From Dictyostelium discoideum (Eukaryota): DNA of 64,000 bases. Made by a program: the position numbers and the translations under genes. Of this stretch, positions 1 to 13,525 are shown one piece after another (the first letter of the stretch is position 1; each line of letters starts with the position of its first letter). The notes under the pieces were generated by a model. It saw only the letters and a program-made list of their open reading frames with translations, was not told the origin of the DNA and made no database searches. The DNA lies in NCBI GenBank assembly GCA_000004695.1, contig CM000152.2:3616001-3680000 (forward strand), written 5' to 3'.

Positions 1-102
1 CTTTATTACTTCTGGTGTACTTGAATAATTCGATTTATTACATAGCGATTCCATCATACGAATACATAGAGAGTCTATTTGTTTAATTCCTTCTAAATCC
101 AT
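1..102 (-). CDS. Possible 5' exon of a minus-strand gene that continues beyond the window start (MDLEGIKQIDSLCIRMMESLCNKSNYSSTPEVIK...)
   Basis: Reverse-complement ATG (cat at 100-102) opens a frame that runs off the window edge. No recognisable domain. Confidence 0.2.
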   Translation of the reverse strand, partial: MDLEGIKQIDSLCIRMMESLCNKSNYSSTPEVIK

Positions 103-138: not shown

Positions 139-378
139 TTATAAATTGTTTGTGATATGTTTATATAACCGGAATAATTCTTTGTCTTCTTCACGAAATA
201 GTTCTTCGGAATCTTTATAGTGCAGTCTAAAAAAGCCAGTAAATTTACCTGTTTCGTCATCAAGTATTGGTACGTGTTTTATATTCGATTTCAAATATTG
301 AATTTTTAAAATGAAATTATTTATAGTTGCTACAACTTGTCTATGTGATAAATATATCTCGTCTTCTTCTCCTTGCAT
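139..378 (-). CDS. Hypothetical 79-aa protein, divergent from the HicA-like ORF
   Basis: True ATG (cat at 376-378). Uninterrupted 79-codon frame with non-low-complexity composition. No family recognised. Confidence 0.4.
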   Translation of the reverse strand: MQGEEDEIYLSHRQVVATINNFILKIQYLKSNIKHVPILDDETGKFTGFFRLHYKDSEELFREEDKELFRLYKHITNNL

Positions 379-453
379 GTTTTAAAATGATTTATTTGAA
401 TAATAAAATTGATTTAAAGAAATAAAATATATAGAAATGTATATAAAAAAGAA

Positions 454-642
454 ATGAAATATTCAAGAGTTGAAAAAACCCTCAAAGAAAATGGTTGGGT
501 AATGGAACGTATGAAAGGGGGTCACGCACAATTTAGGAATGATAGTGGTGGATCGACTACTGTTCCGTATAATGGTAATAAAGATATACCAATTGGTACA
601 TTAAAAGCCATCGAAAAACAAACTGGTGTGAGTATTATATAG
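454..642 (+). CDS. HicA/YcfA-family (mRNA interferase toxin-like) small protein, 62 aa
   Basis: ATG at 454. The protein MKYSRVEKTLKENGWVMERMKGGHAQFRNDSGGSTTVPYNGNKDIPIGTLKAIEKQTGVSII matches the HicA pattern along its full length: K..E..K.L...GW...R.KGSH..F.......TTVP....KD.P.GTLK.I.KQ.G. Confidence 0.55.
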   Translation: MKYSRVEKTLKENGWVMERMKGGHAQFRNDSGGSTTVPYNGNKDIPIGTLKAIEKQTGVSII

Positions 643-659
643 TTTATTTATTTATTTAT

Positions 660-914
660 TTAAAAACCAATTATTGTGTTGTATACATCACGGATATTAT
701 GATGTTTATGATTAAAGAACATGGGATTTATGGGACCATGTGAAAATATTTCCTCACGTGTTGGCATTGGTCTCATTTCTGGTTCTGTGATAATGTTGTA
801 GTATTGTTTGAGAATACTATATTCTTTATATGTTTTTACTTCATTTGTTTTTAACATTTGAGCTAGTATCATTTGTGTTTGGAGCGCAGATTTTATTTGA
901 TTATGTGTATCCAT
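660..914 (-). CDS. Hypothetical 84-aa protein
   Basis: The track ORF starts on TTG. The first ATG is at 914 (MDTHNQIKSALQ...). No domain recognised. Confidence 0.25.
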   Translation of the reverse strand: MDTHNQIKSALQTQMILAQMLKTNEVKTYKEYSILKQYYNIITEPEMRPMPTREEIFSHGPINPMFFNHKHHNIRDVYNTIIGF

Positions 915-1046
915 TTCGTTGTTATATGTGTATGTTAAAAACAATAATGATTATGATTTTATATTTTTTTCTTTTTGACTTTTAAACTGTTGTATCAGTG
1001 TAGTATTGTGCTGGTTGAACAGCAACCGTTAATTGTTCTGTTGATG

Positions 1047-10078: not shown

Positions 10079-10749
10079 GAAAAAATAAAAACAAATAAAA
10101 AATAAATAAAAATAAAAAATAAATAAAATAAAAAAAAAATAAATAAATAAATAAAATAAATAAATAAATAAATAAATAAATAAATTAAAAAATTAATGTA
10201 TGAATTAGTAAATAAATAAATTAATATTTTTACTAATTTTTTTTTTTTTTATTTTCAAATTAGAGAATGATCATTTGGTATTACAGAGAAACTAGAAATC
10301 CAGCGATAGACTTGTTCAAAATCTTTTTTAAGCCAATACAACGCTCAATTAAATTATTATTTTTTAAAATCACATATTCACAACTATACAGTGTCAATAA
10401 TCAAAGCGCTTTGAAAATTTAAAGTACATAACAAAAAAAAAAAAAAAAATTAAACAGTGCAGGAATTGATTTTTCAATTAAATGAAATTAAAAAAAGAAA
10501 AATCTCACTATTTCCACGATTATTGTTTCTATTAATACTATAACCTCATTATTATTATTACCATTTATATTAATATTATTATAATTATTTTTATTATTTT
10601 TTTTTTTTTGTTCACCCCCAATAAATTTATCACAAAATATGTCCTCATTCATTAGTTATTAAAGAAACTAAAAATAAAATAAAACAATAAATATAATTAT
10701 AATAACAAAATAAAATAAAATAAAATAAAATAAAATAAAATAAAATAAA

Positions 10750-11247
10750 ATGTTATTAGAAATTCTCAACAGTTTAGTATCATTTTTTAGTAAGATATTC
10801 TCATTATTTGAAGGTAAAAAAGATATAAGAATAATAATGATTGGACTTGACCGTGTAGGTAATCCAATACTTTTATATAAATTAAAAGTAGGAGATGTTG
10901 TTTCAACCATTCCATCCATTGGATTCAATGTTGAACTATTGAATATAAAAATTTAAATGATAGTTTAGGATGTAGGTGGCCAGTATTAAATTGGCACATT
11001 ACAGAAACACTATAATCATGGTTCAAATGAAATCATCTTTGTAGTGGATAGAACTAATTGTGAAAGAATTAATCAAGTTAATGAAGAAGTTGATAATCTT
11101 TAATTCAAGATGAATTAAAAGGTAAATTCTTTAAATTTAAATTCAATTAAAGATAGAAAATGGTATATTCAACCATGTAGTGCCATTAAATCAAATGATA
11201 TATATGAAGGATTTGATTGGATTGCAAATTCACTCAATAATGAATAA
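10750..11247 (+). pseudogene. ARF (ADP-ribosylation factor) family GTPase pseudogene, copy A
   Basis: [34 protein letters not shown]...VSTIPSIGFNVE...IFVVDRTNCERINQV...NKQD...WYIQPCSAIKS...YEGFDWIANSLNNE, with in-frame stops and deletions. An (AAAAT)n tract precedes the ATG. Confidence 0.55.
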
Positions 11248-11639: not shown

Positions 11640-12700
11640 TATGAAGATGGTTCTACTATTGATAAAAGTGATGGTGATGATTGAGTGAAGAAGCAGGACA
11701 ACTGTGATAAGCAGTCATTGATTCTGTATCATCGATTGCCAATAAAACTTGATGTTGTCTTTTGTTTGATTTACATTCTTTACTTCATCACCATCATCTT
11801 GTTCCATTTCTTGATAATCTAAAACTACTTTTTTTTTATCAAGATTTGTGAGATTTTCTAATTATTCCTTTGTGAATAGTTCTTTTTGATTTAAATCATT
11901 CAATTTATCATCTTCGCCATCTTGTTGTTGATCTTTTTCAAGTTTTCTTTTTCTTTTTCTTTTTCTTTTTCTTTTTCTTTTTCTTTTTCTTTTTCTTTTT
12001 GTTTTTGTTTAAATCGATCTTGTTTAAATTTTGATGTTGATATCTTTTTATTTTCGGTTGTTGTTAAGAAGAACGGTTCTTCCACTCATTACTTGAATCA
12101 CCCATTGATATATATTGATATGGATCAACTTGTTTTTGTTTCTTTGGTGGTCGTTGTGCGCTTGATTGTGGTGGTGGTAGTGGTTGAAATTTAAGAATTT
12201 TTAAGGGAACCTGTTTGTATCATTTTCAGATGGAATTGACTGGGCCATAAAACTATTGTTATCAGCATTATCTAGATTATATTAATCTTTCATGTATTCA
12301 TAAGTGTTGAAAATTTTGATTTACTAGCAGGTGTTTTATCTTTTAACGCCTAATGATTGCCCTGAATCTTTTGGTGTTCATCTTGTTCATTGTAGTTAGT
12401 GATGTTTGATCTTCTTCTGGTTGTTCTTTCTCTGGTTAATCAACTTCTAAATTGACTGAATCAATTTTTGTTGTGGATTTGATCAATTGGTACATTCTTT
12501 GGTGCTTGTAAACTACACCATCAGCTTTTAAGGCTGGTTGATAAGAGATAACCCATTTCCTCAACTCTTGGGATTAATCCATTTACAAAATTACTAATGT
12601 TATAATTCTTCTGAATGATTCAACATTTATTCTTCTGTTAAATCATTCATAATATCAAAATCTTTACGCATCTATTTATATATTTATAGAAAAAAAAAAA
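11640..12700 (-). pseudogene. Degenerate pseudogene (X), inverted copy of the region 29990-31840
   Basis: Reverse-strand translation MRKDFDIMNDLTEE*MLNHSEEL...DNIKFYWQS carries many stops. DNIKFY.QS and the surrounding sequence match 30990-31100 on the plus strand. Confidence 0.3.
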
Positions 12701-13525
12701 TTTATAATTATTAATGTTATATTTGAAAAAAAAAAAAAATTATTAAAAAAATAAAAAAAAACTTACTTTATCATTTAAACCAGTTCTGGAATTGAACAAA
12801 TTGTTTGTTTTACACTTCTCATTTTAACTTCAGATTTAAGTAATGGTTGAGTTAAATCGGCGATTTTGTATATTGGATATTTCTTTTGGTAGTATTCCAA
12901 AAATATAGTTGTACCCTCAATAATATCGGTTACTTTTGAATTTGGACCTTTACATAATATAACGAGTTACAACAACTGGTGTTTAATAAGTTTTACCCAT
13001 TAATGAATATTCCATTGATCTCATAAACTATTTTGATTTTTAAAAAGTATTAAAAAAAAATAAAATAAAATAAAAAGATGAATATGGTTATACAAAAATT
13101 AAAAACTTACAGATTTAATTAAAATATAAAAGAGTTGAAATTATTGATTTATCATTGACTTGTATCATTTATCTCTTGCTATTTACGCTGGTGAGAAATT
13201 GGTTGATTTTGGTTTCTGGAACAGTTGCAATATCTTGGATATCATCATTATCATCTCCAACTAAATCTTTTCTTGAAATTCTTACATCTTGTGGAGCAGC
13301 CGAGGTCTAAACATAAACTGTAAAAAAAAAAAATTGAAATAATAAAAATGAAAATATATATAAACAAATTCTCAATAATAAATAAATAAATAAATAAAAG
13401 CCTTGTATATAGTAAAAAAAAAAAATGAAAAAAAAAAAAAAAAAAAAAAAAAATTTTTTATTTATATAAAAAAAAAACCATATATTTTCACATTTTAAAA
13501 TTTTTTTTGGCGCTTTTTTTTTTCA

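Follow-up and report, generated by a model that had tools for sequence, protein, structure and literature searches.

A solitary HicA-family gene without HicB on chromosome 3 of Dictyostelium discoideum and its probable bacterial origin

A 64,000-nucleotide stretch of chromosome 3 of Dictyostelium discoideum (assembly GCA_000004695.1, contig CM000152.2, positions 3,616,001 to 3,680,000 of the forward strand), called the window in what follows, carries close to its start a small open reading frame (ORF) of the HicA family of toxin-antitoxin (TA) RNases. The explanation that we consider probable, with real doubt remaining, is that this is a solitary hicA gene acquired horizontally by the D. discoideum lineage, whose product would, if translated, be an active RNase that has no HicB and is limited by its expression or attenuated. 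The ORF, at 454..642 on the plus strand, is exactly as a sequence-only reading of the window had described it: it encodes 62 aa in a single exon, from an ATG start to a TAG stop at 640-642, and corresponds to DDB_G0280655 (XP_641106.1, UniProt Q54V25), its product being identical, by exact sequence match, to this public protein from chromosome 3 of D. discoideum AX4. The HicA identity of DDB_G0280655 is already known, as it is labelled in UniProt and NCBI, and Q54V25 carries in UniProt/UniRef the name 'Addiction module toxin, HicA family'. A literature search for HicA in Dictyostelium returned nothing relevant.

The product of DDB_G0280655 is a bona fide full-length HicA-family protein. Pfam PF07927 (HicA_toxin) matched residues 4-59 with 63.6 bits and an E-value of 1.8e-17, for a gathering cut-off of 27 bits, over profile positions 2-58 of 58; the full-length family match that had been read from the letters was borne out by this hidden Markov model (HMM) search, which the sequence-only reading had proposed as a check. 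The agreement exceeds chance by a wide margin. The phage 'toxin' family PHROG 353 (phrog_353) matched with 66.3 bits. Four solved HicA-family chains were found by sequence, with E-values of 1.5e-08 for 9svk and of about 2-3e-07 for B. pseudomallei HicA (4c26/6g26), and in the alignment to 4c26, an H24A construct, His24 of the query stands on the mutated catalytic position, so that the histidine predicted for the catalytic region is indeed there. The AlphaFold2 (AF2) model of the 62-aa protein, a predicted and not an experimental structure built with 16 family sequences, reached a predicted local distance difference test score (pLDDT) of 94.4 and a predicted template modelling score (pTM) of 0.77, and showed the alpha-beta-beta-beta-alpha order (H3-12, E16-21, E24-28, E34-38, H47-57) of the dsRBD-like HicA fold (dsRBD, for double-stranded RNA-binding domain). 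The best six Foldseek matches in the PDB were all HicA toxins, with template modelling (TM) scores of 0.70-0.87, and the superposition of 6g26 on the model gave a TM score of 0.82-0.84 with a root-mean-square deviation (rmsd) of 1.1 A.

The two residues of the beta1-beta2 turn on which HicA toxicity depends are both kept, Gly22 and His24 being conserved in 327 and 332, respectively, of 334 non-redundant relatives. In B. pseudomallei HicA (BpHicA), toxicity is lost with the substitutions G22C and H24A but not with S23A, G14C or P41A (PMC3969222), and the equivalent histidine is essential for the RNase activity of S. pneumoniae HicA (PMC6159526). Against a family profile trained on 160 relatives with the query excluded, the protein scored 95.6 bits; the median of 161 held-out bacterial members was 97.5, and the protein ranks at their 45th percentile. 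Of the 12 columns that are conserved at 85% or more, 10 are kept. Like the bacterial HicA toxins of known structure (4C26/6G26 of B. pseudomallei, 5YRZ of S. pneumoniae, HicA3 4P78 of Y. pestis and TTHA1913, 1WHZ), it has a size of about 60 aa, the dsRBD-like fold (TM 0.8, rmsd 1.1-1.6 A against the AF2 model), the G-x-H catalytic turn, a basic character (isoelectric point 9.7) and a typical profile score. As judged from its sequence the gene does not look like a decayed pseudogene, though decay would not be expected in a young insertion either.

We found no trace of the antitoxin gene. An adjacent HicB is the defining feature of HicAB type II systems: in canonical relatives hicA is closely followed by a same-strand ORF of about 130-145 aa, at 77 of 80 bacterial loci and 78 of 80 viral ones, and of the 40 downstream partners sampled 38 were PF15919 HicB proteins, usually with a ribbon-helix-helix (RHH) or helix-turn-helix (HTH) tail. 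No hicB lies directly 3' of the Dictyostelium hicA. Pfam, NCBIfam, PHROG and PADLOC scans of ten flanking ORFs gave no match except hicA itself, six-frame HMM searches of the 64-kb window gave neither a hicB remnant nor a second hicA (best 7.6 bits, E 0.45), and the Pfam and NCBIfam scans showed no RHH or HTH protein beside hicA; the autoregulation of HicAB systems by the antitoxin at a common promoter is thus a feature that this locus does not share. Between the hicA ATG and the divergent 79-aa ORF (139..378, minus strand; it forms the first exon of the DDB_G0280653 annotation) there are exactly 75 bp, as had been noticed before; the role of partner suggested for this ORF, however, finds no support, the ORF having a probability of 0.05% against a 40-sequence HicB profile in hhalign, no family match, and a BLASTP match to the divergently encoded HicB of the closest bacterial subfamily that reaches only E 0.38, over 7 residues. 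It was rejected on sequence as a HicB partner. In the same way we rejected the 94-aa ORF at 660..944 on the minus strand (84 aa from its first ATG; DDB_G0280657), convergent with hicA, which had no family match and a probability of 0.08% against the same profile, and which is annotated, in its exact 84-aa form, as a hypothetical protein. Both neighbours are given here as context and not as parts of a system. The HicB profile of the nearest subfamily, run against the six frames of 6 kb around hicA, also found nothing. The gene is a solitary intact hicA with which hicB was not co-retained.

Every relative that we found is bacterial or otherwise prokaryotic, from a phage or metagenomic. When 1.84 billion representatives were searched exhaustively with HMMER, 356 matches at E <= 1e-3 were obtained, the closest 59-61% identical to the query and the others at most about 57%, while a word-indexed search returned nothing but the query protein itself. 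A profile search of a collection of 5.8 billion sequences gave 2,205 HicA proteins, and among the best 120 of these 2,205 matches the query is the sole protein from a eukaryote; this negative covers protein collections, dictyostelid genome DNA not having been searched and short ORFs being often unannotated. The relatives in GTDB genomes (Sutterella, Myxococcales, Desulfobacterales, Rhizobium and others, to which Lachnospiraceae can be added among the named relatives) were at most 57% identical, those in viral contigs of IMG/VR, many of them phage contigs, at most 54% over partial matches, and those in JGI metagenomes at most 53%. Since all relatives found are prokaryotic, phage or metagenomic, horizontal acquisition from bacteria is the only reasonable origin and is well supported by the sequence comparisons; the acquisition proposed by the sequence-only reading agrees with the nesting of this hicA in prokaryotic and phage diversity. 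The word 'ancient' that had been attached to it is not supported, as no other eukaryotic ortholog appeared in the protein collections searched and host-like codons need no long amelioration.

The composition of the locus is that of the amoeba. The divergent intergenic region at 379..453, of 75 bp and 10.7% GC, is presumed to be a eukaryotic promoter with the 5' leader, common to hicA and DDB_G0280653, and the downstream flank at 643-700 has 17% GC; the flanks are thus typical Dictyostelium DNA, in agreement with the first description. Directly after the stop, at 643..662 on the plus strand, comes a (TTTA)n/T-rich tract, tttatttatttatttatttaaaaacc, with a presumed role in 3'-end formation or polyadenylation. 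The start context of hicA, aaaaaagaaATG, is A-rich and lacks a Shine-Dalgarno site, in contrast to the closest bacterial relative with its strong site, aaaGGAGGaaaatgtATG; an amoeba intergenic region has taken the place of the bacterial promoter and Shine-Dalgarno site. The G+C content at third codon positions (GC3) is 0.226, and the codon adaptation index (CAI), computed with the window's own long ORFs as reference, is 0.59, on a scale on which host ORFs reach 0.56-0.75 and random synonymous recoding gives 0.28 +/- 0.04. The codon usage is host-like, as had been claimed. It is uninformative on age because the closest bacterial hicA (locus L002) is equally AT-rich (GC3 0.17, CAI 0.61 on the same scale), and the host-like codons could already have been present on arrival; the nearest bacterial relatives sit in most cases on contigs of 29-35% GC. 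It is by its eukaryotic chromosome, flanks and start context, by the lack of HicB, by Gly23 and Asn40 and by a lower charge that the amoeba gene differs from the bacterial HicA toxins.

We compared the locus with an independent assembly, GCA_054883475.1 (CM142509.1), the comparison being made among D. discoideum assemblies only. The ORF is 100% identical there and the first 12 kb of the window are 99.8% identical, and the absence from an independent assembly that would have spoken against the sequence-only reading was not observed. The ORF is authentic Dictyostelium chromosomal DNA, and contamination, which had been judged unlikely, is effectively excluded because the ORF is identical in a second assembly, its flanks are very AT-rich and its start context is A-rich.

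The nearest group by identity and score is metagenomic (P0006, P0172, P0171, P0173, P0177) and points to a bacterial subfamily with an unusual gene order. In this subfamily hicB does not follow hicA; a conserved 131-aa gene lies divergent, 276-332 bp upstream, in seven loci (L002, L243/L244, L245, L247, L248, L250 and L251). The 131-aa gene on the minus strand and hicA on the plus strand were found at 3-140 and 435-629 in L002, 5305-5700 and 6001-6192 in L243, 5273-5668 and 6001-6192 in L245, 29-424 and 724-918 in L247, and 1368-1763 and 2040-2234 in L250. The 131-aa protein is composed of an N-terminal HicB fold and a C-terminal RHH and is mostly below Pfam thresholds; hhalign aligned it with the canonical HicB profile with 98.3% probability (E 1.2e-14, 129 columns). 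Its loci lie on contigs of 29-45% GC and are surrounded by restriction-modification genes (Mrr_cat, Eco57I, EcoRI methylase) and by SLFN_AlbA_2, relaxase and DUF932 genes. The members compared (P0006, P0171, P0173, P0177 and P0178; loci L002, L243-L245, L247, L248, L250 and L251) are 50-61% identical to the amoeba protein and share with it an N-terminal M-x-Y-x-x-[IV]-E-K-x-L-x-x-NGW motif and Tyr39, a rare residue that the query has in common with the P0006 group, while Asn40 and Ala25 are common to the query and other members. Low GC, Dictyostelium-like codons and a gene divergent upstream of hicA are also found on both sides. In contrast, the 131-aa HicB+RHH protein, the strong Shine-Dalgarno site and the restriction-modification and conjugation neighbours are confined to the bacterial loci, and the divergent gene of the amoeba is unrelated. 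The divergent geometry pointed out by the sequence-only reading has therefore a bacterial precedent, since the nearest subfamily encodes hicB divergently upstream, and the layout is in itself a minor extra observation for TA biology.

We observed also a second group of near relatives (P0010 and P0174, 43% identity), HicA proteins of 85-99 aa with a C-terminal extension. At their loci (L246 6001-6645; L249 3001-4483) a same-strand 82-aa HTH_3 protein or a 216-aa protein of no assigned family replaces HicB, next to AIPR, restriction-enzyme and PIF1-helicase genes; these proteins may be alternative antitoxins. A match of another kind was given by P0038, an adhesin-like, repeat-rich bacterial protein of 1569 aa which reached 45 bits against the HicA query in six stretches within tandem repeats; this match is probably spurious or compositional and not a HicA domain.

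In the sequence of events that we propose, the D. discoideum lineage received hicA horizontally from a bacterium, most plausibly an AT-rich one which would have carried the gene on a mobile or defence island. It is now a single-exon gene between AT-rich amoeba intergenic regions, within a cluster of tiny orphan genes of chromosome 3. Characterised HicA toxins cleave mRNA independently of the ribosome (review PMC11594946), and by analogy with the family the protein, if translated, would attach to RNA by its basic, dsRBD-like surface and cut mRNA in the same ribosome-independent manner using His24. RelE, MazF and Kid, other bacterial TA RNases, work in yeast and human cells and do harm there (PMC4773802), from which it follows that an unneutralised HicA would need some control. 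Without a HicB plugging the active site, the activity would have to be limited by a low or conditional expression or by a partial attenuation, for which H40N and the lower net charge (+4, versus a family median of +7) are the candidate changes.

Several observations weigh against this explanation. Transcription and translation of hicA are putative, and a literature search with the gene ID DDB_G0280655 found no paper. The annotation of GCA_054883475.1 calls no gene at hicA, this annotation seeming to call nothing below about 100 aa (its smallest product in a 20-kb stretch has 102 aa). At position 23 the protein has a glycine instead of a serine, a residue found in only 6 of 334 relatives, and at position 40 an asparagine instead of the histidine present in 288 of 334, asparagine occurring in 12. 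The H40N change may weaken catalysis because His40 of BpHicA is described as near His24 in space (PMC3969222); S23G is probably harmless, judging by analogy, since S23A is tolerated in BpHicA and TTHA1913 (1whz, T. thermophilus) reads KGGH at the catalytic turn. The phylogeny does not place the amoeba protein robustly inside the divergent subfamily: in a neighbour-joining tree (62 columns, 200 bootstraps) the best pairing was recovered in 47 of 200 replicates and the sister group is weak, so the donor assignment would come from the identity ranking and the one rare residue Tyr39 only. Finally, no ortholog in another amoeba was found in the protein collections searched, and for this reason the gene could be a recent neutral insertion.

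This last point leads to the strongest of the rival explanations, a possible one though held with clearly less confidence, in which hicA is a neutral passenger or relic: a recently inserted bacterial fragment, unexpressed or functionless, whose ORF is intact only because it is young. It draws on the absence of orthologs in other eukaryotes within the protein collections, unlike the 16 curated genes transferred from bacteria to Dictyostelium, which all have D. purpureum orthologs (PMC3188802; the list of Eichinger 2005 as revised in Sucgang 2011). The composition can be explained without a long residence, because AT-rich bacterial relatives such as that of L002 are already host-like in their codons. 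The gene has no intron, its frame being uninterrupted and equal to the annotated protein; it has no gene call in the GCA_054883475.1 annotation; it contains 13 family-rare residues, S23G and H40N among them; and it stands among tiny orphan ORFs with doubtful gene models. On the other hand, an unconstrained ORF in a genome of about 22% GC should gain stop codons fast, and the complete loss of the Shine-Dalgarno site and of hicB, with flanks that are amoeba-like down to the 75-bp intergenic region, speaks for a substantial residence time. The family-typical profile score, the conserved columns and the retained Gly22 and His24 also speak against a gene left to drift. The gene may be used by the amoeba or may be no more than a young, still intact passenger.

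That the protein is a catalytically dead RNA binder, used or tolerated, in which the fold is kept and the nuclease is abolished by H40N, S23G and the reduced charge, seems unlikely to us. A loss of toxicity would explain survival without an antitoxin, position 40 is a histidine in 86% of relatives and lies near His24 in space, and the net charge of +4 is at the low end of the family, in which values of +3 or less occur in only 3% of members. However, Gly22 and His24, the residues required by experiment, are intact, the BpHicA variant S23A stays toxic, and both Asn40 and Gly23, the latter in the KGGH of TTHA1913, are found also in bacterial members.

More improbable still is a domesticated TA RNase, that is a stand-alone eukaryotic effector restrained by an amoeba-born partner such as DDB_G0280653, which is named here as it occupies the position of hicB in the donor-type bacterial subfamily. 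Its conceivable roles, if the idea were true, would be conditional mRNA decay in stress, bacterial infection or altruistic cell death, and it would be the first case in which a eukaryote has co-opted a functional type II TA toxin. We give slightly less credit yet to a re-invented toxin-antitoxin pair, in which DDB_G0280653 (or DDB_G0280657) would be a non-homologous, amoeba-born inhibitor or regulator of HicA, the remaining form of the partner idea. The geometry resembles that of the seven bacterial loci with their divergent 131-aa HicB, and a common 75-bp promoter region would allow co-regulation. Neither neighbour, however, has similarity to any HicB profile or a Pfam, NCBIfam, PHROGs or PADLOC match. 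The AF2 model of the 79-aa ORF, computed from the single sequence, had a pLDDT of 55, too poor for a fold search, and a helix-strand-strand-helix order unlike the HicB N-domain; the DDB_G0280653 gene model is suspicious, with a 10-aa exon 1.4 kb away, and divergent neighbours 75 bp apart are ordinary in the gene-dense Dictyostelium genome. Contaminating bacterial DNA or a mistake of assembly in the AX4 reference, in favour of which it can be said that the family is otherwise prokaryotic or phage-borne and that the gene has no intron, has practically no chance of being correct, the ORF lying inside a 6.36-Mb chromosome and recurring, with its 12 kb of surroundings, in the independent 6.43-Mb assembly, between flanks of 11-17% GC, with no bacterial neighbours, no Shine-Dalgarno site and host-like codons.

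A solitary hicA retained in the amoeba can be compared with TirB, TirC and TirD of Dictyostelium, toxic bacterial immune effectors acquired without their operon partners and tolerated by the amoeba (PMC13142454). In both cases a potentially self-toxic effector stands without operon or bacterial regulator at a low-GC, amoeba-like locus. Orthologs across Dictyostelia, introns, documented expression, NADase activity and toxicity are, however, known for TirBCD only (PMC13142454). As to the features by which the domestication of TirBCD was recognised, hicA has chromosomal residence and host-like composition and has gained no intron. With the 16 curated transfers (PMC3188802, Table 2), among which DDB_G0280655 is not listed, hicA shares a bacterial Pfam domain absent from plants, animals and fungi and an embedding in bacterial diversity; it differs by the D. 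purpureum orthologs, none of which was detected for hicA in the protein collections. The movement of bacterial conflict-system effectors into eukaryotes is a studied route to immunity and cell-death modules, of which TirBCD are an example in the same amoeba, and an intact type II TA toxin free of its antitoxin in a tractable eukaryote would offer a clean test of how a self-toxic RNase is tolerated or re-purposed. Being apparently confined to one species as far as checked, with no sign of use, hicA is at present a curiosity rather than a discovery.

The genes around hicA were also inspected. The tRNA and Rfam scans of the window gave no matches. In the annotated DDB_G0280653 (80 aa), the first 70 codons of the 79-aa ORF are spliced to an exon of 10 codons that lies 1.4 kb off; the exons of this model are at 11848-12057 and 13494-13523 of the corresponding stretch of CM142509.1 (L001), the second just upstream of the V4-like gene DDB_G0280543. 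This gene model looks doubtful because the intron is unusually long for Dictyostelium. The only database relative of the 79-aa ORF is a D. discoideum model (P0170), and a further unannotated ORF of 66 aa lies between the two exons (L001 12124-12324, partly window 1-102, minus strand). In L001 11200-13600 of GCA_054883475.1, hicA, DDB_G0280653 and DDB_G0280657 are all uncalled despite identical DNA, and short genes may be dropped systematically by the newer D. discoideum annotation. Three small paralogs adjoin hicA, DDB_G0280659 (1047-1481, minus strand), DDB_G0280663 (2324-2740, plus strand) and DDB_G0280665 (2907-3353, plus strand), of 144, 138 and 148 aa respectively, which are 25-29% identical and have the common N-terminus MTSI[FH]..L[IV]LQDG..II. 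The Pfam, PHROG and PADLOC scans gave no match for them; their GC3 of 0.27-0.38 is above that of the long host ORFs of the window (0.11-0.23) and their CAI is lower, 0.41-0.54.

A repeat analysis of 20.6 kb, mostly AT low-complexity sequence, showed no terminal repeats or transposase beside hicA that would speak for a mobile element. It showed a direct repeat of about 360-440 bp, with copies 18.2 kb apart (L001 1399-1757 and 19588-19931), the first at window 10409-10848 and the second about 7.5 kb to the left of the window start, 81-99% identical in segments and 92% identical over 440 bp by BLAST. All the small orphan genes of the cluster lie between the two copies, as do hicA and the V4-like gene, and no transposase or terminal inverted repeats were seen with it. 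An element of about 80-130 nt that is not of low complexity lies about 180 bp upstream of DDB_G0280543 (L001 12504-12633, 13301-13430 and 20323-20402). It recurs in inverted form (92%) at a distance of 667 nt, oriented to the side of hicA, and as a direct copy (99%) at 7 kb. This element may be a promoter element common to the V4 family.

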